This document shows positions 16,620-33,753 of a stretch of 64,000 nt of DNA, one piece after another. Source of the stretch: a virus (lineage: Duplodnaviria > Caudoviricetes); the IMG/VR virus record IMGVR_UViG_3300020577_002562, positions 96,001-160,000 of that record; one strand, 5' to 3'. The notes beneath the pieces were generated by a model. That model worked only from the letters and a program-made list of their open reading frames with translations. It ran no database searches and was not told where the DNA came from. The position numbers and the translations under genes were made by a program. Positions within the stretch are counted from its first letter, which is position 1; every line of letters starts with the position of its first letter.

Positions 16620-18983
16620 CTACTTAGAAGCAGCTCCTAAACCAGCCGGATTAGATGCTGGACCCCCGCCAATCGATCCAATATTCGACGGAACGGGATT
16701 ACTACTAAATCGTAATCCCGAAGCGGTCGGTACTGCAATGCCCATCGTGGAAGAACCTGCGCCAATACCAGCAGAAATTCCACGTTGACGTGGAGGTTTG
16801 ATGTGCTTCTTGCACCACTCATCGTCCAACAAGAACTTGGTACCGAGTGCCCATGCTCTCCAAATATCATCTGTAAGCCCAGGTGCCTTTTCGATTGTAC
16901 GGCCTCCATCGCGAATGGTAGCCAACTGAAGCAAGAAGTGTTCCACAGGTAGATACTGGAAACACTGTGGATAGTTGTCCTGCATCAACAGTATCTCTTG
17001 AAGAGGAATTCCAGAGGCTGGAATCCTGAATGACCGGTCCAGAATGTGATTCTGCACCAGTAGCATATCATCCCTCTTCAATGAGTATCGTTCCGCTGGA
17101 ATACCAAGAGCCTGTGACAAATCATGCAACAACTTGATGCTATTCCACTGATCAGCAAACACGTAGCACACGTTGAAAGCCTTAGCTAACGGAAGCAATA
17201 CATGCTCATAGACCAGAGAGAAGTTCACCACGGAGTTACCAATAGAGGGCGCAATCTCAAGCATCACATCTGTGATGACTTTGATAGGGTCTCTTCTATT
17301 AGGGTTGCGATGAGAGATGGTGCAGGTAAATGAGTTGTTAGACAAGCCTGCGTCGATGGTCATTACCGATGAGATAACCAGAGCCGGCGGATTGCATGCC
17401 ACTTTGGCGTAACGATACTTGACTCCGTGCCGTTCGACCTTATGGTAGTTGTACACCACTCTGTTAGGCACTTTGCCAGGCAGCGCCGATATTGCATCGT
17501 GATCCTGAATAAACGCAGAGTCTACGAGAGGTGGTTGTGCACCAAAGTCACGCATTGCCTTGGCTTCACTACTTTGGAAGTAGGAGTCCAGAGCTTTGCG
17601 GCTGAGTTTAGGGTGAATGTCCCAAGTAGCCAGATGCAACGCCAATATCTTCCGACTGTTGGCGTTGGACTTTACGTGACGCATCATCACGTCACGTCTA
17701 TGCTGAGGGCTAGAGCCTATGATGAACACGGCATTCGGAACATCGTAGTACCCGGATTTCACTCGGTCTTTCCAACCGACGCGCACGTTCAGCATGCTGT
17801 TGTCGAGTGAGGTATAGACTTCACTACCGTTCATGCGAACGGTCTGATCTTCCTCATTACCGTCAGAGAAAAATGCCCACTCGTCCAACAGACAGTTGTG
17901 AACCAGAATGCCGTTGGCAGAGAACATATGGATGTCCTCCACCTCGATGTCATATACGTCGTGCTCTCCTTCCAGTTCTTCGCTGCGCCACAGACGATCA
18001 CGGACGATGTGATTGTTGTCTCGCACCTGGTAGTCGAACGGATTGTCAAGTAGGACGCGAAATGCAGTTGTAGAGTTGCGGTGAATCTGAAGTGTACTGG
18101 GGCGTCGGACAGACAAAACACCAAGGCTCAGCAGCAGAATCTGAGTCTGCTGCATGCGCTTGTCTTCACCGAACAAGACAAAGCTATCCTGGAACAGCGC
18201 AGATAGATAGGCACTGACATGGATCAAAGATGACCGTAGAATCACCCATGGTACTTCGCCTCTAGGAAAGCCCCATTCGGATTCTGCGTATTCGTCATCT
18301 GCTAGCTGTGAGGCTAATTCGCTGGTCATGCGATGTCTAGTTCCATCCTTTTTTCGGAACTGGTCCAAGTTCTTTCTGGAAGCCCCGTTCGCACCGGCTA
18401 CAATGACCACATCGCTAGGTTTGATGTGCTGTGCTTGACGCCACACCATATCATTGTGCTCATCCGAACACATCACCAGATGAGCAGGAGTCAGATCCAA
18501 ACTGAACCCAAATGTGGTTGTCAAACGTATCAGCTTCTTCGCACCTGTACGCATAGCTCTAAGTACAGTAGCTGGAGCCCCAGCTACGCACACACGATTT
18601 TGGTCTGGTATGATACGTTGCATCTCTATGAGACCCAAGTCCGTTTGGACAAGTGCATCACCTCGAATGCATAGCCAACGTGTCTTACCACGCAGCAGCT
18701 TACGGTTTGGACCTGCTGGATACAGCATCAATTGCCGATGAGGATAGTGAAGCATCTGTGTCTGAAACTTCAGAAGCTCCTCGCCATTGCGATTACCCTC
18801 ATGCTTGAGCATGTCGTGATAGCCGCAATTATGTACATTCATGCCACCTGCGTAGTAGTTGTGCGTCCCTGCTACCTCGAAATCGTACACCTTGTGCTTA
18901 CTCAAGTCCGTTACCGACCTGACCTTAACCGCCTTGATAGTCTTACCATTAACGGTAATGATCTTACTTGATTCGGTTTCCAT
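16620..18983 (-). CDS. Terminase large subunit, C-terminal part (split-intein C half plus one cis intein)
   Basis: Begins with IntC (VYDFEV..HNYYAGGMNVHN/C). After intein removal reads LRGKTRWL-CLLDEWAFF (Walker B); nuclease motifs IDAG and DD. Confidence 0.85.
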   Translation of the reverse strand: METESSKIITVNGKTIKAVKVRSVTDLSKHKVYDFEVAGTHNYYAGGMNVHNCGYHDMLKHEGNRNGEELLKFQTQMLHYPHRQLMLYPAGPNRKLLRGKTRWLCIRGDALVQTDLGLIEMQRIIPDQNRVCVAGAPATVLRAMRTGAKKLIRLTTTFGFSLDLTPAHLVMCSDEHNDMVWRQAQHIKPSDVVIVAGANGASRKNLDQFRKKDGTRHRMTSELASQLADDEYAESEWGFPRGEVPWVILRSSLIHVSAYLSALFQDSFVLFGEDKRMQQTQILLLSLGVLSVRRPSTLQIHRNSTTAFRVLLDNPFDYQVRDNNHIVRDRLWRSEELEGEHDVYDIEVEDIHMFSANGILVHNCLLDEWAFFSDGNEEDQTVRMNGSEVYTSLDNSMLNVRVGWKDRVKSGYYDVPNAVFIIGSSPQHRRDVMMRHVKSNANSRKILALHLATWDIHPKLSRKALDSYFQSSEAKAMRDFGAQPPLVDSAFIQDHDAISALPGKVPNRVVYNYHKVERHGVKYRYAKVACNPPALVISSVMTIDAGLSNNSFTCTISHRNPNRRDPIKVITDVMLEIAPSIGNSVVNFSLVYEHVLLPLAKAFNVCYVFADQWNSIKLLHDLSQALGIPAERYSLKRDDMLLVQNHILDRSFRIPASGIPLQEILLMQDNYPQCFQYLPVEHFLLQLATIRDGGRTIEKAPGLTDDIWRAWALGTKFLLDDEWCKKHIKPPRQRGISAGIGAGSSTMGIAVPTASGLRFSSNPVPSNIGSIGGGPASNPAGLGAASK
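17895..18671 (-). mobile_element. Cis intein (259 aa) with degenerate LAGLIDADG remnant
   Basis: CIRGDALV block A, LTPAH block B, VYDIEV...NGILVHN/C end; YLSALF and LLLSLGV remnants. Confidence 0.85.
18828..18983 (-). mobile_element. Split intein C-fragment of terminase (52 aa)
   Basis: Blocks F/G ending VHN followed by Cys+1. Confidence 0.9.
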
Positions 18984-19845
18984 ATTTGTCCATTACTAAG
19001 AAGGAAAATTTGAAGCCTTGCGCTCGACACGCACGTCGTTTAGCTCGATTCACTTCCTTGCTTGCTTTGAGTGTGTAATCACTCTTGACCTCGTAGATTT
19101 TATTCCAACGAGGTACGTAAATGTCCGGATGGTATATCCTTCGCTTGCCATCAAAAACATATTCAATACTGGGCAATTGTTTGTCACCGATGCCGCAACG
19201 AATGTCTGATGGCTGTAGTCTCGTGTTCGACAAAAGCCACTCAATAGCCTGAGGCTCATAACCTTGGACTTGAACCATTCGCTGACCGAGTTTGATTCGT
19301 TTGCATTTATAGGCAGTAGCCAGATTTTTGTCGAACAATTCCTTACTCTGAAGTGCGTGAATCACTCCATATCGTTTACGCATTGTACGTCTAATCTTAC
19401 TCTGAATTTCAGTACGTTGCGTGGAGTATTCGACTCCGTACTTGCGTAAGTTGTATTGCTTAAGCTTCTCTTGAGAACACGGCGGACAGCCACTTCCTTT
19501 TCGCACATTGCCCAAGTATGGCGACCACTCGTGTTTGCACACTAAACATTTCACACGAGTGCGCGTGTTCATGTTAACGAACTCACCTACGCGCTTTATA
19601 TTCTGTTGTCGCAGAAACTTGTCTAGCTCATTCAGGTCGAAGCGTTTACTCTGACTTATGTTGCGATTCCGGGTACAGGCACATCCATATCTGAGCCAAT
19701 AACTGAAATGTTGGGAGGACTGCCGATCACAATCTTGGCAGCGCACTACCAGTTTGTACTGGTGCTGTGGGTCAACACCAACTACTAACAATGACGAACC
19801 GCTACTTTTCAGGTAGGACTTCACAATTTTTAGATTATCACTCAT
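18964..19845 (-). CDS. Free-standing homing endonuclease (Zn-ribbon repeats plus PD-(D/E)XK domain) between the terminase halves
   Basis: CLVCKHEW..GSGCPPC, KYGV repeats, QGYEPQA, HPDIY...EVKS; visibly more AT-rich than flanks. Start ATG 19845 (GTG 19854 is the alternative). Confidence 0.8.
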   Translation of the reverse strand: MSDNLKIVKSYLKSSGSSLLVVGVDPQHQYKLVVRCQDCDRQSSQHFSYWLRYGCACTRNRNISQSKRFDLNELDKFLRQQNIKRVGEFVNMNTRTRVKCLVCKHEWSPYLGNVRKGSGCPPCSQEKLKQYNLRKYGVEYSTQRTEIQSKIRRTMRKRYGVIHALQSKELFDKNLATAYKCKRIKLGQRMVQVQGYEPQAIEWLLSNTRLQPSDIRCGIGDKQLPSIEYVFDGKRRIYHPDIYVPRWNKIYEVKSDYTLKASKEVNRAKRRACRAQGFKFSFLVMDKYGNRIK

Positions 19846-19890
19846 GGTACTCACCGAATCACATACATCAAATTAGTCGGAGTACCATGA
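19842..19890 (-). promoter_or_regulatory. Start-codon-sequestering hairpin with CTAATTT in its loop
   Basis: TCATGGTACTC (19842-19852) and GAGTACCATGA (19880-19890) form a perfect 11-bp inverted repeat; motif at 19870-19876. Confidence 0.7.
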
Positions 19891-19895
19891 CATGC

Positions 19896-20891
19896 TTAAT
19901 CTTCTGTCACCACGTAATCATCTTCCGTTAGCAGATGGATTTCCTTCCACATAATAGCCATACCATCCGGTGTGAGAACGCGAATGCAGTGATCTCCTGT
20001 GGCGACCAGCTTCTTATCGTCTTCCAGAGTTATCTCCTTACAACTGCGCACGCCATTGTCAAAATGACACAGGACTTTGCTTGATCCTTCAAATGTTTTG
20101 ACCATATCACCCGGCTTTATCTGCTCGATTGGAACAGTATTGCCGTTCTCCAGTGTGATCGGTGTACCCTCAGCAATACAGAACCATTGACAGCCCTCAA
20201 TGTAAGTCTTGATCGGTAGCCACTGCTGCTCGTAGGCGTTTGCGAACGTCTGAGCTACTGCCGTACCGACCATAGTGGTTGGCTCAAGATCATACACCTC
20301 GTAGGGGCGTTGAAGCTTAATCATGCGATGCAACTGATAGACTGCGGCAGGCGCTTCAAACTGAGTCGTCTTACCTACTCGCTGGCCGGCTAGCAAGGCT
20401 AGCTCGTGGTACGGCATCATCTCTTTGGCACGCAATAGCTCTAGCCGCGTAGCTTTGCACTTTGGGCACTTGCCGTGTTTTAGCAGTTGGAAGTGCTCAG
20501 GGAATGCATCACTCTTGATCTTCAGTGGCACATCTAGAATGTTGCCTGTGTGGTACTTTGGATTGGAGCACCGTGGACAGATTTCGCCGAACAACATGGA
20601 CAACGCCCACAGTTGGCGTGCGAATGGGCGCAAACGCAAACCAGTGGGCGAAGTTGAGAACTCCCAGTAATTCGGGAATAGCTTAAAGTCACGGTCGTCG
20701 ATCCGCAGATCGCGAACCATCCGTGTGGTAGGATCGATTGCATCCGCTACCATACTCTCAAGATCTAACTCAAGATTCTGGTCTACAGCGAACGTTGTCT
20801 TGATCGGTGTGGGTGCTTCAACTTCACCAAACAACTCGTCGATGAACCCTCGCCTGTCTTTGAGCTTCACTTTGCAATCTCCTGAGGCCAC
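19896..20891 (-). CDS. Terminase large subunit, N-terminal part ending in the split-intein N half
   Basis: FARQ adenine-binding motif, AGQRVGKT Walker A, then WF/CIAEGTPI intein start. Confidence 0.85.
   Translation of the reverse strand: MASGDCKVKLKDRRGFIDELFGEVEAPTPIKTTFAVDQNLELDLESMVADAIDPTTRMVRDLRIDDRDFKLFPNYWEFSTSPTGLRLRPFARQLWALSMLFGEICPRCSNPKYHTGNILDVPLKIKSDAFPEHFQLLKHGKCPKCKATRLELLRAKEMMPYHELALLAGQRVGKTTQFEAPAAVYQLHRMIKLQRPYEVYDLEPTTMVGTAVAQTFANAYEQQWLPIKTYIEGCQWFCIAEGTPITLENGNTVPIEQIKPGDMVKTFEGSSKVLCHFDNGVRSCKEITLEDDKKLVATGDHCIRVLTPDGMAIMWKEIHLLTEDDYVVTED
19899..20180 (-). mobile_element. Split intein N-fragment of terminase (94 aa)
   Basis: CIAEGTPITLENG block A, ATGDH block B, then a stop with no C-terminal HN. 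Confidence 0.9.
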
Positions 20892-21373
20892 AGTCTCATC
20901 AGAACACGCTCCAGATCCTCTGGGTGCGCTTTAAGTTGTCCTGCCAAGTGTCGTATAACTGACAACTCGATAAGCTGATCTGTAGCCTTGGTTACTCGGT
21001 CACTGGTGACGTTGATCTGTCTGTTGTTCGTCAACAGTCTCAGAGTCTCCTCCATATCCGCGTAAGCGGTTGGTAGACTTAGCTCCAAGGCAGAGATACG
21101 GACCAACAGTTCATATAGCGTCTTGTGGTTCTTCTTCAGACGAGTTGTGAACTCTCCGCGCAGCTTCTTGTCTACTTCCTTGAGCGTGATGTCTGGGACT
21201 GATGACTGTGGTTGCGTCTTTACCAGTTCGACCAGTTTTCGTTTGCGCTTTCGTTTGTTCAGTAGAGCGTCAGCATCCCACCAATCATCTCGCGTTCGCT
21301 TTTCCGGCTGCGGCAGCTTAGTAGCAATCTTGGGGCTCTCTTTATGAATGACCCCGAAGATTGGGTCATTCAA
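20867..21373 (-). CDS. Hypothetical protein upstream of terL (small terminase candidate by position only)
   Basis: 3' part of the 243-aa ORF; likely TTG start at 21373 overlapping the DnaB stop. Confidence 0.45.
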   Translation of the reverse strand: MNDPIFGVIHKESPKIATKLPQPEKRTRDDWWDADALLNKRKRKRKLVELVKTQPQSSVPDITLKEVDKKLRGEFTTRLKKNHKTLYELLVRISALELSLPTAYADMEETLRLLTNNRQINVTSDRVTKATDQLIELSVIRHLAGQLKAHPEDLERVLMRLWPQEIAK

Positions 21374-22862
21374 CGTCGCTGAGGTCTTCGAGGTATTTCT
21401 CGTCTTTGTCCGTTTGGTCTTTCCGTCTTCCGTCGTTCGACCGATGCTTGTTTCTTCCATTAGCTGGGCGAACACTCTTGCCTGTTGTTCGGAAGCCAGA
21501 CTTTCCTGATCCTGCGTGTCGGCCGCTGGAACTGGAACCGGACCCTCGTTTGGTTTTACCTCTACTGGTACTGTCTTCTTCATCGTCATCTCCGCCATCA
21601 GGCAGCATATTACGGTCTACGTCCTTGTATTGCATCGGCGCGTTGATAGCCATGATTTGGAACGGGAACTTCTTCTGGTTACGCGCCTTCTGTTGCTCGA
21701 TGTCCAAGATCGATACATCGCTAATCTCGGCCGGGGCAGTCCACGACCACAGGTTGTTTGCATTCTCTTTGATGCCACCAGAGTAACGCACCAGACCCTC
21801 TTTCGATAGCTGTGCCACTAGAATGACTACAGTGTTCGTGTTCTTGGCCCAGATCTTGGCAAACCGACTGATCTTTGTCAACTGCTTCCATTGCTCATCA
21901 CCGTCCGCACCCTTCAGTAGTGAGATGTAGTCAACGATGACAACCTTGTATCCGTAGGGCTTCAACGAGAACAGCACCTCTTCGATTGATACGTCTTCAT
22001 CCGGTGACAGGATCGAGTACCGGGTGCCTATCTCTTTGAGTTCCTTGACAAAGGCTACATAACTACTCTTGATTAGCTTGCGTTCACTGTTGGACAACCG
22101 GCCCTGAGATATTCGGTTGACATCTATACCAGAGAGCACACCAAGCTCACGCGCCTTCATCTGCGTAGCGGTCATCTCCAACGGCACTATGGCAACGTCA
22201 TGCCCGCGCCGAGCCATGTTGATGCCAAGTTGGTTTGCCACTGCTGACTTACCGCCTCCGGAATCCGCAGCCAGCACTACCAACGAACCTTCTAGAAAAC
22301 CGCCATTCTCTCGGTCAAAGTCATCAAAGCCAGTTGGTACTACTTTGGGCTTCTTGGCTGACAGCAAGTCCTTAACCAACTTGACCGAGTTGTTGCCCTT
22401 TCCAGTGTGGAATAGACTCTGGGTCAAGTCGACCTTGGTCTGGCTCTTGACTAACTTGGTGTGCAAGGCTTCGGTCAGCTTCTCGACATCTAGTTGATCG
22501 CCCTCAATCTCGTTGTAGATCTGTTCAGCAATCGAATAGAGCCCCCGTACTCTCCGCATCTTGTCCAGCGTGCGGATCATGCTTCGGGCATCACGCCTCG
22601 AATCTGTGGTTTCAGCGTCTGACCCCTTCAATAGCTTCCGGTACTTCTCCGATAGCTTGGGGTCTGAACACAGTTCAGTCCACGAGGGTATCTCACCTGA
22701 CTGACGAACGCTTGCCATCACTGCTTCATAGGCCGCTTTCGTTGGCGGGTGGAAGAAGCAGTCTTCGTTCAATGAAGCAAGCACCAGACTTCGCAGCTTG
22801 TCAGAGGCATCGCATATCGTGCGCAATGCCTGGTACTCTAACCTGGTACTAACGATTTTCAT
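21366..22862 (-). CDS. dnaB: Replicative DnaB-like helicase
   Basis: PTGFDDFD, AADSGGGKS Walker A, PLEM, VIVDYI, VAQL, KARN. Confidence 0.9.
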   Translation of the reverse strand: MKIVSTRLEYQALRTICDASDKLRSLVLASLNEDCFFHPPTKAAYEAVMASVRQSGEIPSWTELCSDPKLSEKYRKLLKGSDAETTDSRRDARSMIRTLDKMRRVRGLYSIAEQIYNEIEGDQLDVEKLTEALHTKLVKSQTKVDLTQSLFHTGKGNNSVKLVKDLLSAKKPKVVPTGFDDFDRENGGFLEGSLVVLAADSGGGKSAVANQLGINMARRGHDVAIVPLEMTATQMKARELGVLSGIDVNRISQGRLSNSERKLIKSSYVAFVKELKEIGTRYSILSPDEDVSIEEVLFSLKPYGYKVVIVDYISLLKGADGDEQWKQLTKISRFAKIWAKNTNTVVILVAQLSKEGLVRYSGGIKENANNLWSWTAPAEISDVSILDIEQQKARNQKKFPFQIMAINAPMQYKDVDRNMLPDGGDDDEEDSTSRGKTKRGSGSSSSGRHAGSGKSGFRTTGKSVRPANGRNKHRSNDGRRKDQTDKDEKYLEDLSDVE

Positions 22863-23428
22863 AGGACTTGTACAGTCTCAACGTGACCTAGATTCATGCA
22901 GTATTGAATAGCCATGTGCAGCTTGCTATTGGCTATCGTTAGTGGATCACATCCACTACAAACCACGATGCGAGGGATGTTGCTGTATTGGGTTAGCAAG
23001 TCTCTCACCTTCTCAAACTTAACGGCTGTGCTATCAACCACCAGATTGCTCAAGACCAACATGCTAGGCCTGAACTCTGCTGGCTTGTCGCGGAGCTTGT
23101 CTGCGAACGAACCGTTGACCCAATGCCATAGAGGCGGCTCGAAGCCCGGGCGCCGAAGTTTGAATGCCAGCCCCATCATGTGAGCGGCCAAAAGTCTAGC
23201 TCGCTGGTCGTTAGGATTCGATGCGATGACCATGATGTACGGGTCAGCATCTTTGACACAGTGTTCATAGCGCATCAACTGCGCTGCCCTAGTAATACGC
23301 TTGTCAGCGTGGCGGAACGATTTGGCTGCACGATCAAGCACAAAAGGCCGCACACGAAACAAGTCTCGTGGCAGCCCTCTGTTCAGCATCTGCTGCTGTA
23401 ACGTCGTGTCTGACGGTAATTGGATCAC
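22859..23428 (-). CDS. Putative helicase loader (degenerate DnaC/IstB-like)
   Basis: Coupled to dnaB; MLVLSNL...VRDLL...PRIVV pattern but no intact Walker A. Confidence 0.4.
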   Translation of the reverse strand: MIQLPSDTTLQQQMLNRGLPRDLFRVRPFVLDRAAKSFRHADKRITRAAQLMRYEHCVKDADPYIMVIASNPNDQRARLLAAHMMGLAFKLRRPGFEPPLWHWVNGSFADKLRDKPAEFRPSMLVLSNLVVDSTAVKFEKVRDLLTQYSNIPRIVVCSGCDPLTIANSKLHMAIQYCMNLGHVETVQVL

Positions 23429-23453
23429 ACGCCTCTCCGGCTTTGAAGTCTAC

Positions 23454-23461
23454 TACTTTAC
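23454..23461 (-). promoter_or_regulatory. GTAAAGTA motif, putative replication-gene promoter element
   Basis: Intergenic, 25 nt upstream of the loader/dnaB unit; recurs before clamp and polymerase. Confidence 0.45.
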
Positions 23462-23486
23462 CGATTCGTCAGTCAGACTAATCGGT

Positions 23487-24293
23487 TCACTTGGATCCTT
23501 TTTCTGGTCGCATACCCATGCGCTTATACCGAATCTCCATCAGCAATTTTCCAAGTTGATTCTCGCCACGACCGTTGCACACACCCCAGAAAATGTCACC
23601 CCAATGGTTGCCCTCAATGAGCTTGTCTGGGTACGTTTCAATCAACCGCCTGGTCAGCGTCTTGCCTGGAGCAAATTTCTGCCCCAACAATTGCCGCATC
23701 ACATCTATCTTGATGCGCTCCCAGTTTGGCGAAAGCCGAACTCGGCTGCCCTTTCTCTTGGCCTGTCCGGCAGTGCAAGTCTCGTAGATCTCTCGTTCCG
23801 TTGTTGGCGACTTGGCTGCTTGGTAGGCGTTCTCTACAGTCGGGTACGTCTTGCCGTCTAACACAACCTCACTAGCCCAGAAGTTACTGAGCCAAGCATA
23901 TTCACCGTCAAAGCGTGTTATGGCCGTAGTTGGTTTCATCTCTCGAGGCTTTCTGTCTCTTCGGTCAGTCGAATCTAGCAATCCGCTGCCTACTGTGTTA
24001 CCGTCACTATCCAATTTCAGGTTGTAGACTGAGGTGAGCGCAGCTATTGCCAACAATTCTGCTCTAGAGAATACGGTCAATGGCTTACCGCAGTACCCTA
24101 GTTGCTGTGCTATCATCAGACCAGTTTTTAACAGGTCTAATGGTAGTCTACTTTCTGTGCTACCCTGACACCCTTCTATGTTGCATAGATCGGTTAGTGT
24201 GCAAGCGTCGCATGGGATCTTGACTTCTTTTTTTGGCTCTGTGGACTCCTCTTTGTTAAAGTCTGGTGTTGGCGATACCAAAGGCTTGTCCAT
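23487..24293 (-). CDS. NADAR (YbiA-like) domain protein
   Basis: WLSNFW, YPTVENAYQAAK, KF, LIEGNHWGDIFWG, GENQLGKLLMEIR. Domain starts near ATG 23939; the N-terminal part may be an extension. Confidence 0.9.
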   Translation of the reverse strand: MDKPLVSPTPDFNKEESTEPKKEVKIPCDACTLTDLCNIEGCQGSTESRLPLDLLKTGLMIAQQLGYCGKPLTVFSRAELLAIAALTSVYNLKLDSDGNTVGSGLLDSTDRRDRKPREMKPTTAITRFDGEYAWLSNFWASEVVLDGKTYPTVENAYQAAKSPTTEREIYETCTAGQAKRKGSRVRLSPNWERIKIDVMRQLLGQKFAPGKTLTRRLIETYPDKLIEGNHWGDIFWGVCNGRGENQLGKLLMEIRYKRMGMRPEKGSK

Positions 24294-24300
24294 CAGAGTC

Positions 24301-24717
24301 TCAGTAGTTTGGGTTAGTCTCGAATGAGATTGGAGATGGTTTTGCGAGGTCGCTCGCTAACTTGAAGCCAAGCAACGGCCAAATCTTACTGACTGCATGC
24401 TGCCGCGCCACTTTGCGGCCAAACTCTGGGTCAAAGTTCTCAGCACTTACGCAAGCACTTTCTCCGGTCACGGTGTACCCATTCTGCAAGACCAGCACAC
24501 AGATCGTTAGCCTATCCAATGAACTAGGAAAATCTAATGAGACTCTTGTGCCTTCATTTACGGCATCTGGACCATCCCTGGCCGCTTCTCCTGCAGTGAA
24601 GTAGTGCTCAGATACAATTGCGTTCTCTATGTCACGCAGCGTCACTCGTGGAGCGTTCAGCCCACGGGCAAGAATCTCTTGTTCAACGTTGGTTACAGCC
24701 ACAATCCACTCCTTCAA
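24301..24717 (-). CDS. N4 gp49/Sf6 gp66 family protein
   Basis: PRVT..I, LTICVLVLQNGYTVTGESACVSAENFDPEFG, IWPLLGF. Confidence 0.85.
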   Translation of the reverse strand: MKEWIVAVTNVEQEILARGLNAPRVTLRDIENAIVSEHYFTAGEAARDGPDAVNEGTRVSLDFPSSLDRLTICVLVLQNGYTVTGESACVSAENFDPEFGRKVARQHAVSKIWPLLGFKLASDLAKPSPISFETNPNY

Positions 24718-25175
24718 CGTAGAGTATTGGCATCGCGCATAGCGCGGTACTTGTTCAGTTCTTCAACCACCAGATCTAGGTCAGAGACATCGATACTAAG
24801 CTCCTTTCCACTCAACTGAAGTTTGACTTGATCATCCACGAAGCCTGTACCACGCAGCAGATAGCTTCCGATTTGATATGTACGCACCATCTCTTTCATC
24901 ATCGGACTGAGCCCCCATCGACGTTCTCGTCCGGAACCCCCAAACTCTGTGGCATTCTTCTTGACCAATAAACCAGCATCCATTGCCTGTTCCAAGCAAG
25001 TACGAAGTCCGACTATAGGTCCGAAGAGATCTTGCATGAACTCGGTGCTGATCCAATCATTCGGGTGCATAGCCAAGTACATCATGATCTTGACACGAGG
25101 GGCAACTTCATAGCGTTGCCTAGTCTTTGATGTAGATTCGCTTTCGCGCACGGCGCGTCCGTTTTGATAGATCAC
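24714..25175 (-). CDS. Hypothetical protein, possible winged helix
   Basis: 153-aa ORF in operon; start uncertain. Confidence 0.45.
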   Translation of the reverse strand: MIYQNGRAVRESESTSKTRQRYEVAPRVKIMMYLAMHPNDWISTEFMQDLFGPIVGLRTCLEQAMDAGLLVKKNATEFGGSGRERRWGLSPMMKEMVRTYQIGSYLLRGTGFVDDQVKLQLSGKELSIDVSDLDLVVEELNKYRAMRDANTLR

Positions 25176-25608
25176 CTGACCTCCATGCTAGTCTAGCCAG
25201 AATGGTAACTCGTACCTCTAGATCCATCGGACGCGAACGGGCTTTCGTGCGTATTCGACAGTAGCCAGTGTCGTCCAATACCAGTACGCCACAGTCTCCT
25301 AATCTTCGTTGGGTCAGTAGTTTAGCCGTCTGTGCCTTCTCGTACACTTTCTTGGTAACGCACAAGTACATGCGGTCGCAGAAAGGGCGGTACTCATGCA
25401 TCTTGTTGTCGGTGCGCAGATCCGCCAATGAGGACTTGACTTCAACAATGACGATCTGACCGCTGATCTTGTTGCCGATTACGTCTACGCGCCGGCGACC
25501 CCACGGCATCACTCCGACCTCGAAGTGACAACTGAAGCGGTACTTGAAGAAGAGGTACGCCGCAGCTTGCTTGAGCGCATCAGCTACTTGCTTACGTGAC
25601 GCTGCCAC
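25120..25608 (-). CDS. MmcB-like PD-(D/E)XK nuclease
   Basis: RRVDVIG, IVEVKSSLADLRTDNKMHEYRPFCDRMY. Confidence 0.8.
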   Translation of the reverse strand: MAASRKQVADALKQAAAYLFFKYRFSCHFEVGVMPWGRRRVDVIGNKISGQIVIVEVKSSLADLRTDNKMHEYRPFCDRMYLCVTKKVYEKAQTAKLLTQRRLGDCGVLVLDDTGYCRIRTKARSRPMDLEVRVTILARLAWRSGDLSKRTRRARKRIYIKD

Positions 25609-25612
25609 GCAT

Positions 25613-26020
25613 TTATCCCTTATACTCCAATAGTCTCAGATCTTTCTCGCGCAGTATGAACTGATGTCTACTGTCACCTTGTAGGAGATTGATAGTACCG
25701 CTTCTATCATCAATCCATGACTCATCATCGAACAGCACAGCGAAGCGAAATCCCTTCTCAGTGAACTCCACCTCTTGCACAGTCGCTTTAGCACCCGGCA
25801 CCAGGAAATGTGCGCAGTGTCTCCAGCCCGGCGCTTTGTTGTAGTCCGGGGCGGCAACCAGAGCTACACGATCACCAACCTTGAATGGTGCGTGTTTCTC
25901 GATCAGATGATTGTAGGCGGCTACAAGCTTACGCAAGTAGTAATCAAGAGGACCGCTGTTCAGGAGCCTTATCGCATCCGACATGAGCGATATTGCTTTC
26001 TCCACTTTCTCAATTCCCAT
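25613..26020 (-). CDS. Hypothetical protein
   Basis: 135-aa ORF in operon. Confidence 0.55.
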   Translation of the reverse strand: MGIEKVEKAISLMSDAIRLLNSGPLDYYLRKLVAAYNHLIEKHAPFKVGDRVALVAAPDYNKAPGWRHCAHFLVPGAKATVQEVEFTEKGFRFAVLFDDESWIDDRSGTINLLQGDSRHQFILREKDLRLLEYKG

Positions 26021-26270
26021 GGAAGTCCTTAAATAGCGTCAAGCTGATATTACGATTGACGTCGTGTGTTTTAAGAGAATCTACCGAAGCAATCTCTTTG
26101 TCAGTAGCTAGCCTCCAGTAACGCGGCAGTATCATAGACCCAAACAACGGATCAATAACACAGCATCCACGATTACACGTCTTTACGATACGTTCGGAAT
26201 CCAGTACACTGTAGCGAACAGCAATCCAGGTCTGTTTAGGCGGTAGCTCCTCGTCAAACGATTTGAGCAT
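26010..26270 (-). CDS. Hypothetical protein
   Basis: 86 aa, GGAG RBS. Confidence 0.5.
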   Translation of the reverse strand: MLKSFDEELPPKQTWIAVRYSVLDSERIVKTCNRGCCVIDPLFGSMILPRYWRLATDKEIASVDSLKTHDVNRNISLTLFKDFHGN

Positions 26271-26286
26271 TCTTCACTCCAGTATC

Positions 26287-26736
26287 TCACGCAACGCCAG
26301 TGGAGCCGATGCCGCCCTGACCGCGCTCAGTCTGGTCGAACTGGTCAACCACTGTGAATTGAGCTTGCATTACAGGTACGATGATCATCTGAGCTACGCG
26401 ATCCATAGGGGTGATGAAGAAGGGTACATTGGATCGGTTCCACATGCTGACCATCAAGGGTCCTTGGTAGTCACTATCGATCAGACCTACCAAGTTACCG
26501 AGCACGATTCCATTTCGGGCACCGAGTCCTGACCTAGGCAACAACATGGCGGCATAGCTTGGATCGCGGATGTAGATGGAGAGTCCAGTTGAAATTAGCT
26601 TAGATGCTCCTGGGTCCAAACAAGTCGGAAGATCGATGCATGCACGTAGATCGAGCCCCGCCGAACCGACAGTTGCGTATGTAGGCAACTGGTCACGCAT
26701 ACGCTCGTCCAGTATCTTCACTTCAACGTTGATCAT
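26287..26736 (-). CDS. dut: Trimeric dUTPase
   Basis: All five motifs: [37 protein letters not shown]. Confidence 0.95.
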
Positions 26737-27482
26737 GATTGGTCCTTGTCACATAGGGTAGTATTTCCAGAGCACTCACACTGGTTTCGTGGCAGACAAC
26801 TGTCTCGCCACATTACGTCAGAACACTTGTCGCAGGATACTGAACGGTCACCTCTCGTGACTAGCGTTGGTTCACGCTGCTCCTTAGTCGTCGCGTGCTC
26901 ACGGCAGTGGACCACGTAGTGCTTGTCTGTTCCGTAGTCACCAAAAGTCGAGCACCCGCAACTGCTAGTACCAGCATACCCCACGACGCGCTCTTGAAAT
27001 GAGCAGTCCGACAACTCATTCCACAAGGTCACACGACGGCCATCGTCCATCTTGACCTCATAGCGTCCGGCTCGAATCGTTACCGAGACAGGCAATGCTT
27101 GCTTGGCAGGTGGTGTTAGTGTGTGTGCTGCCACAGCTCTAGCTGCGTGGTTCTTTCCAAAGTGTTCTTTGGCGCAGACCTCGCACATGATGGCCCTACA
27201 ATCCAAGCATCGGATCACCGTGTTGAATGACAGTGCGGTCTTGCATTGGTAACAAACCTGTACAGTCTTGGTGAGCAGGTCGATTGCGTGCTGATAGACC
27301 AATGCGCCAATGTTCCAATCCCTCAAATTGATCTGTTGACCGCCTTCAGTCTTTTCCTTCTCAAAGCCGAATTGTGCATATGCCTTCTCAATGGCTTCCG
27401 CCAACTGCCGCCAATCGAATGTGGGTATGATGCGTTCCATGTCAACTGTCCCCTTCGTTGAATAGCTAGGCGTATTCATCAC
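26733..27482 (-). CDS. Cys-rich hypothetical protein
   Basis: CYQC..CLDC..CEVC..HF zinc finger. Confidence 0.55.
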
Positions 27483-27571
27483 CTACTAATTGATTCATCA
27501 TTTCCTTCACCTAGAGGCGAACCACGCCAGAGCCGCGATCAAACAAAACGCGAGAAAGGCGATGAAGTACA

Positions 27572-28561
27572 TCATGTTTGCACCTCTCGCAGCATCACCA
27601 TCGTAGCTACAGGGCGCGAATGGATGGTAATGATCCGTAGCGAATAGTACACACGAATCACTCGCCATGTCCTGCAATGCAAACTCTTGACATGCTCAAG
27701 TGCCTCACTGTTCCACGCCTCTTCGTCATGGAGACTGCTATCAACACTAATATGCTCATCCGCACGCGGGACTGCCTTCCCTAGATTAGTTGACGTGACC
27801 AACTCCTCTACACTACGTTCATGCAGTTTAGCCATATCCTCTACCAGCTTGGTCATCTCTAGATCAGGCTCAACCAGTGCAGGGCCAATCTTGGTCTTGA
27901 TACAGTCTGTGCAGTACAGAGCATACATCGTGTCTTGCGTACTGGTCTTTCCACACTCGGAGCACCTGTGTTTCGGTTCATGACCTTCAGCTGTAGTCTC
28001 TACCTTTGGCTGTCGTGGCAAGATCGATAGGTCTACGAAACGAGGATCGGCAAATGTTTTGAACACGAACGTCCACGCCAGCCTACCATGTGGCTTTGTA
28101 CCTGGATTTGACGACAAACTCCTCAGATCAGTTGCGTCCACAATGCGGTTGATCAAGTGCTGGGGTTCACACGCATGCTCCGTCCACGGCACTGCCATCA
28201 GGTCCAAGTCTCTGGTGAACGAACCGTGTAGACCAACAGCATAGCCCTCATCCCAAGCGAGCTTGCGGATGATGGTGTAGACGCGACCGTAATCTGGGTC
28301 AATTATGCCATACACTTGACCATTGGTGTTAGGTGCTGGTTCTCGCCGATTCCAGTTGGCAATGGCATCTTGCTCGGTGATACTTATCACTTCAGCGCCG
28401 CAACCACCTTGAACTTCTGGGCACTGCGCGCACCAGTCTTGGTTGCCCAGTTCATCTGGTCGTGTGGTTGGATAGCAGAAGTCTGGGTCAGTCGTGTCGA
28501 TCACATGACCGCAGAAAGGACACGGTTTAGCTCGGTTCGGTGCTAGTTCTCGATCAGTCAT
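27572..28561 (-). CDS. Multidomain protein with N-terminal Lar-like (restriction alleviation) zinc finger
   Basis: KPCPFCG...CGA...AIANWNRR, followed by LHGSFTRDLDL nucleotidyltransferase-like motif. Confidence 0.6.
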   Translation of the reverse strand: MTDRELAPNRAKPCPFCGHVIDTTDPDFCYPTTRPDELGNQDWCAQCPEVQGGCGAEVISITEQDAIANWNRREPAPNTNGQVYGIIDPDYGRVYTIIRKLAWDEGYAVGLHGSFTRDLDLMAVPWTEHACEPQHLINRIVDATDLRSLSSNPGTKPHGRLAWTFVFKTFADPRFVDLSILPRQPKVETTAEGHEPKHRCSECGKTSTQDTMYALYCTDCIKTKIGPALVEPDLEMTKLVEDMAKLHERSVEELVTSTNLGKAVPRADEHISVDSSLHDEEAWNSEALEHVKSLHCRTWRVIRVYYSLRIITIHSRPVATMVMLREVQT

Positions 28562-28609
28562 AGTTTCTATCTCCTACCATAGAGACCCCACGCGCTTGAC
28601 GTTCCCTGG

Positions 28610-28858
28610 CTAACGTCTTTTCAACTTTGCTGTAGCCTCGCTGCTCATAGACCGAGCCTTGGTTTGAAGAGCCTTCATCCAAGCAACCCCAATTTCCTCA
28701 AGCTGTTCGTCGGTGAACATATAGATTGGCCTGCCATTACCATCTAGCTGTAAAATAGAGGTCGGCACTTTCGGAATGAGGTATTCAGTGGCGTATGTAC
28801 TATGGACTTTCACAACAGGCGGTGATTCTTTGATCTGCTTCATACATGCCCTTGTCAA
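28610..28858 (-). CDS. Hypothetical protein
   Basis: Short ORF in operon. Confidence 0.45.
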   Translation of the reverse strand: MTRACMKQIKESPPVVKVHSTYATEYLIPKVPTSILQLDGNGRPIYMFTDEQLEEIGVAWMKALQTKARSMSSEATAKLKRR

Positions 28859-29140
28859 CTAGACTTGTGGTTGAAGGTGGCGGGTCTGCTCCATCAAGCA
28901 GTCAAGACACAAACCTGTAGAATTACATCCACCTTCATTAAAGACGACGATAACTCGTGGACATACCCAAAGAGTTTCAGACCAGGTAGTACCATCACCT
29001 CTGGTGTGTGTCTTGTTGTGTAAACCGTGGCAATGTTTGCACGGCGTTCCTCCACCATACTCTGAAACCTCCTCATTTTCATGAACAAACCAGTCTCCAC
29101 CTTCCCACATACTTCCAGAACTGAACGCATGCTTAGTCAT
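28859..29140 (-). CDS. Hypothetical zinc-binding protein
   Basis: CKHC...CLDC. Confidence 0.5.
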   Translation of the reverse strand: MTKHAFSSGSMWEGGDWFVHENEEVSEYGGGTPCKHCHGLHNKTHTRGDGTTWSETLWVCPRVIVVFNEGGCNSTGLCLDCLMEQTRHLQPQV

Positions 29141-29153
29141 CTGTACACCTTAC

Positions 29154-30116
29154 CTACCACTTGATTCCGATGGTTGGACTGTCGTCAACTACTCTACGCC
29201 CCTTGTTCATGTACTTCATGGCGACTTGTACCTGCTCTCGGTCGATCTTGAATCTCTCAGGCTTGTAGGTCTGCCAGAAGCAAGTGCGCAGACAGCCACG
29301 ACTAGGGCCGTAGTCCTCTATGAAATGCTTGATCAACGGTTGTTGCTTGCCGTCCACCACTGTCCGTATACGTGCAGTCTCTTGCGCCAGCTTAGGTGGA
29401 TTGGAAATCGGTATGACCTCGTAGATGGTGTCCCATCGCGGGATGTTCAAGCCGACTTGCACGATCCGTCGGATACCAACGATGATGCGAATGCGGCCGC
29501 TTCGCGCATCTTGCAGTATCTTAGGACGCTGCGTGTTCCGTTCGACCTGACCAGTGAATGCGGCAGCAATGTCGCGGTCTTTCCCAGTCATACGTCGGTA
29601 TGCCTTGTTCAGCACGTTGGTCAGCAGCATCGCGTGCTTCACTCGATCCACCGGGATGACGATTGACCGGTCGTGCTTGATAACGTCCTTCAGCGCGTGC
29701 TTGACTATCAGTGTGTTACGTTGCTCGTTGTTGGACAACCAAGTGATAGCACCCGGCCATGTCTTGTGACCGGCGTGCGTAACCCCAGTCTCTACGAACT
29801 GAACACTAGGCACCAGCGTATTGGCTTGCCCCTCGGCACGTACAGGACCGATCACCAACTGAGAGAGTATGATCTTGCCATCTTTGCGATCATACGTCCC
29901 CGTCAGTCCGATCATGTACAACGAGTTCAACTGAGCCACTACTTTGAGGTACTCATCCGCCGCAGTGTCGTGGCAATTATGAACGAGCACACCTTTGTCT
30001 GAGTCTGGGCCATAGACAAAGTAGTTGTGATGCTGCTCCACTCCTATATCGTACACATCTACAGGCGCATCCAGTTTGATATGCTCTACTGATGACACTC
30101 TCACTAATTTTGTCAT
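29154..30116 (-). CDS. SF2 (UvsW/XPB-like DExH) helicase, C-terminal part beginning with the split-intein C half
   Basis: VYDIGVEQHHNYF...VLVHN/CH, then GLTGT..RKDG (motif III), GLNIPRWD (V), QETARIR (VI). Confidence 0.9.
   Translation of the reverse strand: MTKLVRVSSVEHIKLDAPVDVYDIGVEQHHNYFVYGPDSDKGVLVHNCHDTAADEYLKVVAQLNSLYMIGLTGTYDRKDGKIILSQLVIGPVRAEGQANTLVPSVQFVETGVTHAGHKTWPGAITWLSNNEQRNTLIVKHALKDVIKHDRSIVIPVDRVKHAMLLTNVLNKAYRRMTGKDRDIAAAFTGQVERNTQRPKILQDARSGRIRIIVGIRRIVQVGLNIPRWDTIYEVIPISNPPKLAQETARIRTVVDGKQQPLIKHFIEDYGPSRGCLRTCFWQTYKPERFKIDREQVQVAMKYMNKGRRVVDDSPTIGIKW
29976..30116 (-). mobile_element. Split intein C-fragment of helicase (47 aa)
   Basis: Blocks F/G ending VHN, Cys+1. 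Confidence 0.9.
30104..30110 (+). promoter_or_regulatory. CTAATTT motif upstream of the antisense endonuclease
   Basis: 36 nt upstream of ATG 30147, overlapping the first codons of helicase IntC on the other strand. Confidence 0.5.
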
Positions 30117-30146
30117 ACTGGTGAATCATGTATTGGAGTTAAGGGC

Positions 30147-31175
30147 ATGTTACGTCAAGATCATCCGCGATTTCATCAAATGGTGTCCCGACATAGAGCC
30201 CTGTGCTCAGTAAGAAAGATAAAATTCACTGCCAAGATTGTTGACTTGAGCACTACACGTTATTTACATCGTTGTCACTGTGGTCATGCTTGGAAGCAAA
30301 CTATATCGAACTTTGTTGGCCGTACTGGATGTCCTGCTTGTGCGATGCGGCGTTTTCAACTAGCTGGAGCAGCTTCCGCGCGTGGAAAACCTGCGCATAC
30401 GAGACTAACAAAAGGGGAGTTTCTGAAGCGGCTTCCTAAAGGCTATCGTCTAATCGGATCTTACTCAGGACAACGCGAACTAGTCTCATTGAAATGCCCA
30501 CAAGGTCACATAAGACGAACTACAGCGGACAACGCCCATCGTTATGGCTGTGGTGTATGCTCGGGAGTTGAAGTTTCACTTGACTCCCACAACAAGCAAT
30601 TGGCTGCTCTGAATGACCGTGTTCGTTGCCTGCAGTATTTTGGGGCACGCACAGCATCCAGATACCATTGTCTACAGTGTAAGTTTCGCTGGTCTTGCAT
30701 CCCTACAAACATTTTGAAGACTAAACGATGTCATTGTCCGAGCTGTCAACCACCTGGCGTAACTGTCAGATGCGTCAAGCTTGGGCGTCGCAAAGTGCTT
30801 GTTCGTGGATACGAGCCACAAGCTCTAAACTATTTGATACAAGTGAAGGGGTACAAACCTAACCAGATTCGTACAGAGCTTGAGGGAACTGTCCCAAGAA
30901 TCAAAGTCAATGGGCGACTTCATAAACCCGACTTTTTCATCCCAAGCGATAACCGTCTGGTAGAAGTCAAGTCGATTTTCACTCTCGGACTCAACGGTGA
31001 GCTATATTTCAAAAGAGCATTCCAGAAGTTGAAGACTAACCACGCAAAAGCCCGGGAGGCAGGGTACCGATACAACTTGCTAGTTTTTCTCAAAGACGGA
31101 ACGCGAGTAGACATACCTAGTAAGTGGTATCTATTGAGCACTGAACAAATGCGACAGTTACTTCGACAACAATAG
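30147..31175 (+). CDS. Free-standing homing endonuclease (Zn-ribbon repeats plus PD-(D/E)XK) between the helicase halves, antisense
   Basis: Three Cys/His ribbons; VRGYEPQAL, KPDFFI..EVKS; paralogue of 18964 and 34265. Confidence 0.8.
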   Translation: MLRQDHPRFHQMVSRHRALCSVRKIKFTAKIVDLSTTRYLHRCHCGHAWKQTISNFVGRTGCPACAMRRFQLAGAASARGKPAHTRLTKGEFLKRLPKGYRLIGSYSGQRELVSLKCPQGHIRRTTADNAHRYGCGVCSGVEVSLDSHNKQLAALNDRVRCLQYFGARTASRYHCLQCKFRWSCIPTNILKTKRCHCPSCQPPGVTVRCVKLGRRKVLVRGYEPQALNYLIQVKGYKPNQIRTELEGTVPRIKVNGRLHKPDFFIPSDNRLVEVKSIFTLGLNGELYFKRAFQKLKTNHAKAREAGYRYNLLVFLKDGTRVDIPSKWYLLSTEQMRQLLRQQ

Positions 31176-32174
31176 CTCGTCATTTACCGTTAACTCCGAT
31201 GCCTTCACGTAATCTTGTCTAGTAACCGACCAAAACTTGTGGTTCGGAGTGCACAGAAGTTCTCTACCATCAATAGTGACGCGCACGAGATGGGTAACAG
31301 CTTTCTTTGTGAAGCTCTCTATGGGTTTGAATTCTCGTTTCCCAGATTGATGATTGAAGCACTCGACAGTCGTCTTGTAGCCGCTTTCTACAATATCACC
31401 TAAAGACATCAGCCCATTTTTGGTCTTTACTCTATGACCATAGGTGAAGCATTCATCTATGATGATGGTCCCAAAGTGATCCTTGATCTGTTCAAGCTTC
31501 TTCTTGCCACCAGCAGACAAGAACGTTTGATACGTACACAGCACGATGTCATACTTCAGCATATCCTTGACATCAGTGACTATGCCAGCGATCTTGCGTC
31601 CGTTGAACTTCTCTAGGTCGTCAATGTTGGTTACTGCATCCGCACCTTTGAGCGACAGCATGAACTGGCGCAACCAATCGATCTGGGCCGCAATGATCAG
31701 CGTGCGATACCCGATCTTGATCGAAGCAGCTATCGCCATCACTGTCTTGCCCGAACGCGGCGGAGACAGTAAGACACCCCGCTTCTTCTTGATGATCGTG
31801 CGTACAGGATCGCGTTGATTCTTCCAGAGCTTGCCTGTGAATTCGATGGCGTGACGAAACCGCTTGTATTCGGAAGCAGGCTTCTCTCTAGTGACAGTGA
31901 TCGGCTTACCAACTACTTCCTTGACGATTGACGGACGTCCCAACGGTAAACCAAGCATGCCATCTCGTTTGGTCCACAAGTGGTAAGTGCCCCGGAACTC
32001 AGGGCATTCGTCGCAGATGTCACAGTGACGCTCTTCTAGGTACTCACATTTGTTGCATGCTTTCTCGTTGTAGATGCGGATAGTCAGGTGTTTTTTGGCA
32101 CGCTCTACATTCTGCTTCGTAGCTGGCACCCACAGCTTGGAATTACGTACCGCCTCAACTGCTTGAGTCTTCAT
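31158..32174 (-). CDS. SF2 helicase, N-terminal part ending in the split-intein N half
   Basis: SPPRSGKT Walker A, TYQT, IIIDE/CFTYGHRV intein start. Confidence 0.9.
   Translation of the reverse strand: MKTQAVEAVRNSKLWVPATKQNVERAKKHLTIRIYNEKACNKCEYLEERHCDICDECPEFRGTYHLWTKRDGMLGLPLGRPSIVKEVVGKPITVTREKPASEYKRFRHAIEFTGKLWKNQRDPVRTIIKKKRGVLLSPPRSGKTVMAIAASIKIGYRTLIIAAQIDWLRQFMLSLKGADAVTNIDDLEKFNGRKIAGIVTDVKDMLKYDIVLCTYQTFLSAGGKKKLEQIKDHFGTIIIDECFTYGHRVKTKNGLMSLGDIVESGYKTTVECFNHQSGKREFKPIESFTKKAVTHLVRVTIDGRELLCTPNHKFWSVTRQDYVKASELTVNDELLLSK
31161..31451 (-). mobile_element. Split intein N-fragment of helicase (97 aa)
   Basis: CFTYGHRVKT block A, CTPNHKFW block B, YVKASEL..D.L end then stop. Confidence 0.9.
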
Positions 32175-33498: not shown

Positions 33499-33753
33499 TC
33501 AACGCAACCGAAGGGTCGCGTACTTGTTACTGCGGTTATCCGAGTAACGGAGGTACATATGCAGTCTGCGATGAGACTGCTGGATCTTCTGGCACAACAA
33601 GCGAGCGGCGCAGCTTATGTGGGTGATTGATCGGAGTACCGATCCGTCACCTGCAGCTGGATACGCTGCTCGCCACAGACAACGTCCCAGCTTACGTCTG
33701 TTTGACCAGACGAATCGGTACCGTCGCTTATTTCCCTTGAGCTTGACTTTCAC
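33499..33753 (-). CDS. Hypothetical basic protein
   Basis: Coupled ORF. Confidence 0.35.
   Translation of the reverse strand: MKVKLKGNKRRYRFVWSNRRKLGRCLWRAAYPAAGDGSVLRSITHISCAARLLCQKIQQSHRRLHMYLRYSDNRSNKYATLRLR

Follow-up and report, generated by a model that had tools for sequence, protein, structure and literature searches.

Two fractured genes in a jumbo phage carry split inteins of mirror-image charge: a probable difference between lineages and not a pairing code

Introduction

The fractured genes of phage origin described by Dassa et al. (2009; PMC2677866) consist of three ORFs at one locus, and their inteins are split at the canonical endonuclease-insertion loop into halves that are complementary in charge, with both polarity classes represented. 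In the cyanobacterial DnaE split inteins (Npu/Ssp), the IntN is acidic and the IntC basic, assembly proceeds by ‘capture and collapse’, and the two halves come from distant loci that are not separated by an endonuclease gene of the intein. The gp41-1 intein (6QAZ) combines a basic IntN strand with an acidic IntC strand (Beyer et al., 2019; 10.1101/546465), and NrdJ-1 has the polarity opposite to the gp41-1 type (Dassa et al., 2009). Electrostatic steering of split-intein halves, on which a preliminary description of the DNA considered here drew, is well established (Dassa et al., 2009; Beyer et al., 2019).

Both polarity classes, as well as orthogonality through charge swaps, have already been published. 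Mutual orthogonality of natural split inteins was found by experiment for 15 of 16, and orthogonal pairs of the same polarity are known, viz., gp41-1/gp41-8 and NrdJ-1/IMPDH-1. On the engineering side, in the charge-swapped Npu DnaE and the charge-engineered NpuDnaB mini-intein, reversed charges suppress the cross-reaction of inteins that are near-identical and would otherwise cross-react. Npu remained cross-reactive after a charge swap at the level of strands; a swap over the whole fragments reduced its cross-reactivity, and charge can therefore create orthogonality. A search of the literature on orthogonality among natural co-resident split inteins found nothing specific.

We analyzed a window of 64,000 nucleotides (positions 96,001 to 160,000 of the IMG/VR record IMGVR_UViG_3300020577_002562), which is one stretch of a 187-kb jumbo-phage contig whose record is about 75% complete. 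Two split inteins, one in a terminase large subunit and the other in a superfamily-2 (SF2) helicase, are genuinely co-resident in this phage, and the charge signs of their halves are reversed, as the preliminary description had held. We favor, with a probability of roughly three in four, a reading in which these are two independent fractured genes, their mirror-image charges are a difference between lineages, and charge is neither a dedicated nor a necessary code for pairing.

The fractured terminase and helicase genes

Each host gene is present as two ORFs at one locus, in the original order and orientation, and all four pieces are on the minus strand. Both loci display IntN and IntC ends, an intervening endonuclease ORF and colinear exteins, the same layout as in the fractured genes of Dassa et al. 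The inteins are likewise split at the canonical endonuclease-insertion loop, here into IntN of 94–97 aa and IntC of 47–52 aa, with the IntN abutting a stop codon and the IntC opening at a start codon in both. The region first singled out for attention, 18828–31451, runs from the end of the terminase IntC to the start of the helicase IntN.

The N-piece of the terminase large subunit (19896–20891, minus strand) has a 237-aa N-extein with a zinc-ribbon region and Walker A, followed by the 94-aa IntN (19899–20180, minus strand); it can be aligned with TerL from Xanthomonas phage PhiXhv-16, and homologous N-pieces share one common end point. The C-piece (16620–18983, minus strand) opens with the 52-aa IntC (18828–18983, minus strand) and continues through a 52-aa extein and a contiguous intein into a 424-aa C-extein that bears Walker B and the nuclease. 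The contiguous intein (17895–18671, minus strand; 259 aa, with Cys1 and Cys+1), a third Hint domain that was absent from the preliminary description, matches Pfam Intein_splicing (1.5e-21) and lies directly before Walker B. Once it is taken out, the terminase alignment is gap-free over that junction, and the TerL spliced in silico (713 aa) shows no gaps over both intein junctions against an annotated phage TerL. The terminase intein of Dassa et al. (2009) has an atypical split that leaves an IntC of 122 aa, whereas the one described here is split canonically and lies between Walker A and Walker B. Between the halves lies a free-standing putative homing endonuclease of the DUF7487 family (18964–19854, minus strand; Pfam 3.6e-30, with matches in PHROGs), the 3' end of which extends 20 nt into the beginning of the C-piece.

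The N-piece of the helicase (31158–32174, minus strand) spans the ResIII/DEAD region up to the ‘DE’ of motif II and ends in the 97-aa IntN (31161–31451, minus strand; alleles P0010, P0013, P0014 and P0015). The C-piece (29154–30116, minus strand) starts with the 47-aa IntC (29976–30116, minus strand), after which the C-extein opens with ‘CH’ and goes on to Helicase_C. The motif thus reads DE-intein-CH, yielding DECH, where the intein-free homologues have an uninterrupted ‘DEVH’, and the junction is colinear and gap-free with them. The host protein, an SF2 DECH helicase, differs from the gp41/DnaB helicase of Dassa et al. A second free-standing putative homing endonuclease, in which DUF7487 is combined with treble-clef zinc fingers, separates the halves (30147–31175, plus strand). 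A pattern search of viral contigs using the neighboring DnaB gene returned nothing. Neither locus was matched by Megablast among 50,697 phage records, and tblastn recovered as relatives only terminases of about 35% identity from jumbo phages of Xanthomonas, Erwinia, Dickeya, and Pseudomonas.

The DUF7487 ORFs match endonuclease families of PHROGs and possess an invariant E...PD...ExK motif, in contrast to the endonucleases of Dassa et al., which have a Vsr-like EDxHD motif or are of the GIY-YIG type. In structural comparisons, the C-terminal domain of the DUF7487 model has a nuclease fold that is related to the Vsr-like one, aligning with I-Bth0305I (3R3P; Z 7.0, rmsd 3.6, 80 aligned) and Vsr (Z 6.9), but it scores higher against TnsA (Z 9.1, rmsd 2.7, 104 aligned). 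A sequence search of solved structures gave no real match for DUF7487 and none to 3R3P, and Foldseek with the model retrieved nothing at E <= 0.001. The endonuclease genes sit in low-GC islands (0.47 versus 0.51–0.53) and group by insertion site; around a third DUF7487 gene (34265–35104), flanking intein halves were searched for and none was seen. Rfam detected no intron and no other RNA family in 16–36 kb. A promoter and terminator scan of 16–33 kb found sites no more numerous than in shuffles, leaving co-transcription neither supported nor contradicted.

We propose that the terminase large subunit once held an ancestral intein, which a DUF7487-type PD-(D/E)xK homing-endonuclease gene broke, and that a separate ancestral intein at motif II of the SF2 helicase was likewise broken by a gene of this type; each host protein would therefore be made as two polypeptides. 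Once paired, the IntN and IntC would adopt the Hint fold and splice in trans, thereby restoring the ATPase core of the terminase and the DECH box of the helicase, and the terminase would afterwards need cis-splicing to lose its contiguous intein.

Integrity and predicted assembly of the split inteins

All four split-intein halves are matched by the Pfam Hint/intein models and by our own HMMs. The catalytic set is complete in all three inteins, the two split ones and the contiguous one, comprising Cys1, TxxH in block B, Asp in block F, the HN at the end of the IntC part, and Cys+1; the use of Cys+1 by both split inteins had been noted in the preliminary description, with positions that prove to be correct. 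The terminase IntN is kept in 8 metagenomic alleles of 40–57% identity with invariant Cys1, Thr, and His, and, more generally, the catalytic residues of the split inteins do not vary among alleles whose identity is otherwise just 34–57%.

We modeled a complex of the helicase IntN, the terminase IntN, and the helicase IntC, with the last as the scored partner. It scored 0.88, with 0.41 for the best of three controls, and passed a mark that is attained by 58 of 80 solved complexes as against 2 of 110 mismatched pairs; since solved structures of similar intein complexes exist, this pass shows likeness to them. The runs share at least 98% of contacts, the partner has a pLDDT of at least 80, and the listed interface of the helicase IntC in the model is with the cognate helicase IntN only. 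However, in the control where the terminase IntN was the sole intein-like chain, the score was still 0.41 with 213 confident contacts, which were not assigned to a chain; judged by shape alone, non-cognate docking is therefore conceivable.

These observations bear on the alternative that one or both split inteins have decayed and do not trans-splice, their pieces being non-functional or forming non-covalent two-chain proteins. Such decay would fit the finding of no clear Shine-Dalgarno sequence upstream of either C-piece start, and a second gene copy could lie in the missing quarter of the record. Nevertheless, no other copy of the terminase or the helicase was found in the 187 kb, the fractured terminase is common to at least seven divergent phage contigs, the nucleophiles and conserved blocks are intact throughout and withstand considerable allelic divergence, and the cognate complex is predicted with confidence. 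Decay is accordingly highly improbable.

Charge patterns of the intein halves

The net charge is -9 in the terminase IntN (9 K/R versus 18 D/E) and +2 in its IntC (7 versus 5), and +4 in the helicase IntN (15 versus 11) and -3 in its IntC (4 versus 7), exactly reproducing the earlier hand counts. The split of charge signs between the halves of one pair is not significant by label permutation in either case (terminase, p=0.17; helicase, p=0.29). The terminase pattern gains weight from its conservation among alleles, and this is true of the terminase only: homologous terminase IntNs lie at -8 to -15 in 9/9 cases, and in seven paired alleles the IntN ranges from -5 to -11, with six of the seven IntCs at +1 to +3. 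The terminase intein therefore has the DnaE-type polarity, and it further resembles DnaE in its acidic IntN tail, Lys-rich IntC strand, Cys1, and Cys+1, but differs in having an endonuclease gene between its halves. In sequence, the best PDB match of its IntN is gp41-1 (E 0.007), and no close relation to DnaE is detectable.

In contrast, the reverse pattern of the helicase intein is weak and is not kept by its relatives. Pairs of this lineage show +4/-3, -4/-4, 0/-6, -4/0, and -5/-4, the second of these being the allele of the helicase intein in L010, and the IntNs of helicase-intein relatives span -5 to +6, with +20 in a more distant IMG/VR homologue. The helicase intein agrees in sign with gp41-1, though with a much weaker charge bias, and by sequence its IntN comes closest to NrdJ-1 (8UBS; E 3.7e-4). 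Whole-fragment net charge was considered as a pairing descriptor and rejected, because 5 of the 10 non-terminase cognate pairs collected are like-charged.

At a finer scale, the terminase IntN tail is clearly acidic near the split site, whereas there is little net charge in the helicase tail or at the start of either IntC; the local strands of the helicase intein carry only +2/+1 and -1, within +/-2. Hence, polarity at the hairpin adjoining the split site is not reversed. At one strand contact, a Lys-Lys of the helicase IntN faces an Asp of its IntC, a reversal that is conserved in the lineage, and at the corresponding contact the Asp of the terminase IntN ‘FDNG’ faces Lys/His/Lys of the IntC. 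Resting partly on alignment, a local reversal of charge at this contact is plausible.

Charge reversal and the pairing of halves

The preliminary description interpreted the inverted polarity as a possible built-in code that would make non-cognate pairs like-charged and so prevent terminase-helicase chimeras. On this reading, the reversal would have been selected because an infected cell contains both sets of precursors, and non-cognate halves would repel each other. In the window, both cross-pairs are indeed like-charged by net charge (-9 with -3 and +4 with +2). Furthermore, the presence of Cys+1 in both inteins could render a mixed complex chemically competent, electrostatic capture is the accepted first step of assembly, the above strand contact appears locally reversed, and, as a weaker point, the loci share a strand, are separated by 10 kb and have no convincing terminator in between.

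Several observations nonetheless count against such a code. The two inteins share only 18% (IntN) and 34% (IntC) identity, a degree of divergence at which natural split inteins are orthogonal irrespective of polarity; hence, they require no charge-based device for discrimination. The helicase side of the reversal is also statistically weak and is absent from its allele in L010, there is no reversal close to the split site, and the two polarity classes are about equally common (2 versus 3), such that one of each would be expected in a genome about half the time.

Related phages reinforce this. In three of them, a second split intein accompanies the same terminase intein, and none is fully reversed: the terminase and second inteins are, respectively, -11/+3 and 0/-6 in L009, -9/+3 and -4/0 in L007/L013, and -9/+1 and -5/-4 in G006, the last being the one further co-resident case in a scan of ten large records. 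In L007/L013 and G006, the second IntN has a charge opposite to that of the terminase IntC, and, among the window and these three phages, both cross-pairs are like-charged by net charge in the window only. At the same time, all four phages have a basic terminase IntC, and in none is the IntC of the second intein basic, making some electrostatic discrimination plausible. Split-intein pairs of one lineage in the same genome were sought in 61 viral contigs with helicase-type IntN relatives, which appear twice in none.

Taken as an explanation of the reversal, a selected code is unlikely, and the claim that the two inteins depend on one is not supported, given the orthogonality of natural inteins that share a polarity. 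Unlike the near-identical inteins of the engineered charge-swap pairs, these are not otherwise closely similar, and, judged by sequence, an orthogonal pair created by charge inversion would not be supported. We also consider it quite unlikely that the reversal acts as a kinetic filter among three Hint-domain precursors present together in the cell, deflecting each IntC from a non-cognate IntN ahead of folding; were this so, the inteins would constitute a co-evolved, fast, and strictly orthogonal Cys+1 pair for one-pot three-piece ligation.

We therefore return to the difference between lineages, where the mirror-image charges would reflect two anciently diverged intein lineages: that of the terminase, in which a DnaE-like acidic-N/basic-C pattern is conserved, and one of helicase/PolA type, in which charges drift. 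Correct pairing would then come mainly from the overall sequence and shape complementarity of cognate halves, to which charge may add some kinetic steering. The anatomy of the genes, the catalytic motifs, the colinear junctions, the charge counts, their conservation, and the comparison with relatives are directly observed; splicing activity, orthogonality, and this limited role of charge are what we infer for both inteins.

Implications

The suggestion that opposite polarities and charge swaps could serve protein engineering is not new; since both the polarities and charge-swap orthogonality have been published and tested, the charge-code claim is only modestly interesting to engineers. If both pairs are active and orthogonal, they would provide two uncharacterised natural split inteins for the protein-ligation toolbox, one of a terminase type kept in a jumbo-phage clade and the other in a helicase DECH box. 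DUF7487, a Pfam family of unknown function, has a likely role as the homing endonuclease of fractured genes. Finally, the terminase presents a compact natural case of an essential protein that putatively needs both trans- and cis-splicing.

Architecture of the two fractured genes

The window (positions 96001-160000 of an IMG/VR virus record 187 kb long, with a completeness estimate of 75%) has every long gene between 16.6 and 32.2 kb on the minus strand, and two of these are in pieces. The terminase large subunit is encoded by an N-piece (19896-20891) and a C-piece (16620-18983), between which lies a gene on the same strand for a 296-aa DUF7487 protein (18964-19854). Similarly, an SF2 helicase (ResIII/DEAD plus Helicase_C) is divided into minus-strand N- and C-pieces (31158-32174 and 29154-30116), with the gene for a 342-aa DUF7487 protein (30147-31175) between them on the opposite strand. 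Both N-pieces carry a C-terminal Hint N-half with Cys as its first residue and a TxxH motif, and both C-pieces open with a Hint C-half that has HN as its last two residues and Cys directly after them. Scanned in full with HMMs, the window yielded these four split halves and one contiguous intein, with no further match. The layout is that of the ‘fractured genes’ reported in 2009 (Dassa 2009, PMC2677866), the window's version differing in its PD-(D/E)xK-type endonuclease. In both fractured genes the split inteins are real and well formed.

The window terminase is ~35% identical to those of 200-270-kb jumbo phages of Xanthomonas, Erwinia, Dickeya, Yersinia, and Pseudomonas, and a database search found no phage record near-identical to the window loci. 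In silico excision of both terminase inteins yields a 713-aa protein that aligns gap-free across both junctions with the terminase annotated in Xanthomonas phage PhiXhv-16. Of the two, the split intein lies ~65 residues past Walker A, and the contiguous one (17895-18671, minus strand; 259 aa, with Cys1, HN, and Cys+1) lies directly before Walker B in the C-piece; the ~120-aa middle of the latter matched no Pfam endonuclease family. With this second element in its C-piece, the terminase would need one trans- and one cis-splicing event. As for the helicase, intein-free homologues (55-58% identity over the N-extein) have DEVH where the window has DE-intein-CH. Since the 187-kb record holds no second copy of either gene and no intron model matched at these loci, the split genes are likely to be the working copies, and we infer that both are active.

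The start codon of the terminase C-piece lies inside the endonuclease gene, 20 nt from its 3' end (18964-18983). Neither C-piece start has a clear Shine-Dalgarno sequence ahead of it, and the IntC-pieces may be translated through coupling to the gene upstream. Another locus, L084, shares the position of the window's contiguous intein with one of its own. The terminase of PhiXhv-16, an isolated jumbo phage (L012:1-3582; annotated at 1193 aa), has a large contiguous intein at about residues 201-647, just ahead of the Walker A GK[ST], bringing the intein sites of this terminase family to three.

Charge polarity of the intein halves

The preliminary description had proposed that opposite IntN/IntC charge polarity in the two inteins could serve as a code against terminase-helicase cross-splicing. 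Its counts proved exact on recounting (terminase IntN -9 and IntC +2; helicase IntN +4 and IntC -3), and the reversal in the window is real. Within a single pair, the charge asymmetry is not significant under charge-label permutation (p 0.17 for the terminase, 0.29 for the helicase). On the predicted contact strand, a Lys-Lys of the helicase IntN would face an Asp of its IntC, and at the aligned positions of the terminase an IntN Asp is opposite a basic IntC triplet. The split-site hairpin, by contrast, shows no reversal of polarity: the terminase IntN tail is clearly acidic (-5) and the rest is near neutral (helicase tail 0; IntC starts +1 and -1). The charge reversal is thus non-uniform at the sub-interface level.

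Allelic forms of both inteins were gathered through metagenomic searches and their contigs retrieved. At least seven divergent contigs carry the fractured terminase with a DUF7487 gene on its strand. Homologous terminase IntNs carry net charges of -8 to -15 in all nine found; where both halves are available (seven alleles), IntN ranges from -5 to -11 and IntC from +1 to +3 in six, the one exception having an uncertain start codon. DnaE-like polarity is thus a stable trait of the family.

The helicase intein belongs to a different lineage, which occupies four sites, always with an opposite-strand DUF7487 gene: helicase motif II (the window and the related contigs L010 and L011), a second helicase site (L009), and two PolA sites (L013 and G006). 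The DUF7487 endonucleases of this lineage group by insertion site, and the cassette of intein and endonuclease seems to have colonised new sites. Polarity in this lineage is labile: IntN/IntC charges are +4/-3 in the window, -4/-4 in L010, 0/-6 in L009, -4/0 in L013, and -5/-4 in G006, and among farther IMG/VR relatives of the helicase IntN there are split forms that are strongly basic and others that are clearly acidic. Of the 10 non-terminase split pairs collected, only three combine net charges of cleanly opposite sign, and in five the halves have charges of like sign; hence, whole-fragment net charge describes even cognate pairing poorly.

Loci with the helicase-lineage intein and the opposite-strand DUF7487 gene were delimited at L009:4107-7368, L013:6001-10474, L100:343-4878, and L010:2182-5345. 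A gp41-1-like split intein (+5/-4, Ser+1) was also encountered in a 326-kb viral record (G001; L081:3746-4248). A gap of only 96 nt, free of any endonuclease gene, separates its halves, and the locus looks like a fractured gene minus its endonuclease.

Is a charge code required for faithful pairing?

In four related phages the terminase intein is accompanied by a second split intein. In the window (-9/+2 with +4/-3) both non-cognate pairs are like-charged; in L009 (-11/+3 with 0/-6) one is repulsive and one neutral; in L007/L013 (-9/+3 with -4/0) one is neutral and one oppositely charged; and in G006 (-9/+1 with -5/-4) one is repulsive and one oppositely charged. Only the window therefore shows full reversal, which is no rule of the group, though the four cases, each combining the same two lineages, are not independent. 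With two known polarity classes, about one combination in two is expected to be of opposite polarity. The best reading of the reversed polarity is a chance pairing of two lineages that differ in charge habit, with at most an auxiliary kinetic benefit.

The two inteins of the window share 18% identity in IntN and 34% in IntC, the latter mostly within the universal blocks F and G. When both IntNs were offered together in a three-chain prediction, the helicase IntC scored 0.88 against 0.41 for the best of three controls, on a scale whose mark is passed by 58 of 80 solved complexes and 2 of 110 mismatched pairs; as similar intein complexes are already solved, a pass shows likeness to them. Contact agreement across runs was at least 98% and partner pLDDT at least 80, and the predicted interface of the helicase IntC, as listed, involves only its cognate IntN. 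In the 0.41 control the cognate IntN was replaced and the terminase IntN was still present, the tool not reporting which chain was contacted. In published work, natural inteins of like polarity did not cross-react; Npu cross-reactivity persisted after a charge swap on two interface strands and was curbed by a whole-fragment Npu swap, as it was by a swap in the NpuDnaB mini-intein. Charge can contribute to pairing, yet it is neither necessary nor new as an idea. The remaining value of these loci is descriptive, namely a conserved terminase split intein in a jumbo-phage clade, a terminase with a dual splicing need, and a probable function for DUF7487.

DUF7487 as a probable homing endonuclease

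The two genes between the halves, like a third, free-standing one (34265-35104, plus strand), encode Pfam DUF7487 proteins with N-terminal treble-clef zinc-finger motifs, and these genes match PHROGs endonuclease and homing-endonuclease families. An E...PD...ExK motif is invariant across nine homologues. In an AlphaFold2 model (mean pLDDT 80), the C-terminal part forms a restriction-endonuclease-like domain, which best matches TnsA (Z 9.1, rmsd 2.7, 104 aligned residues), followed by the I-Bth0305I catalytic domain (Z 7.0, rmsd 3.6, 80 residues) and Vsr (Z 6.9, rmsd 3.0, 83 residues); Foldseek alone ranks I-Bth0305I first, weakly (E 0.036). A homing-endonuclease-type function is probable. GC content dips to 0.47 at all three genes, against 0.51-0.53.

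The third gene lies between minus-strand ORFs (33750-34214 and 35101-35634), with no intein halves seen beside it, and could encode a stand-alone homing endonuclease or have split an intein-less gene. In this phage group, DUF7487 is apparently the main homing endonuclease family. Another member (L009:16271-17416) is located directly upstream of a DNA ligase gene in a related phage.
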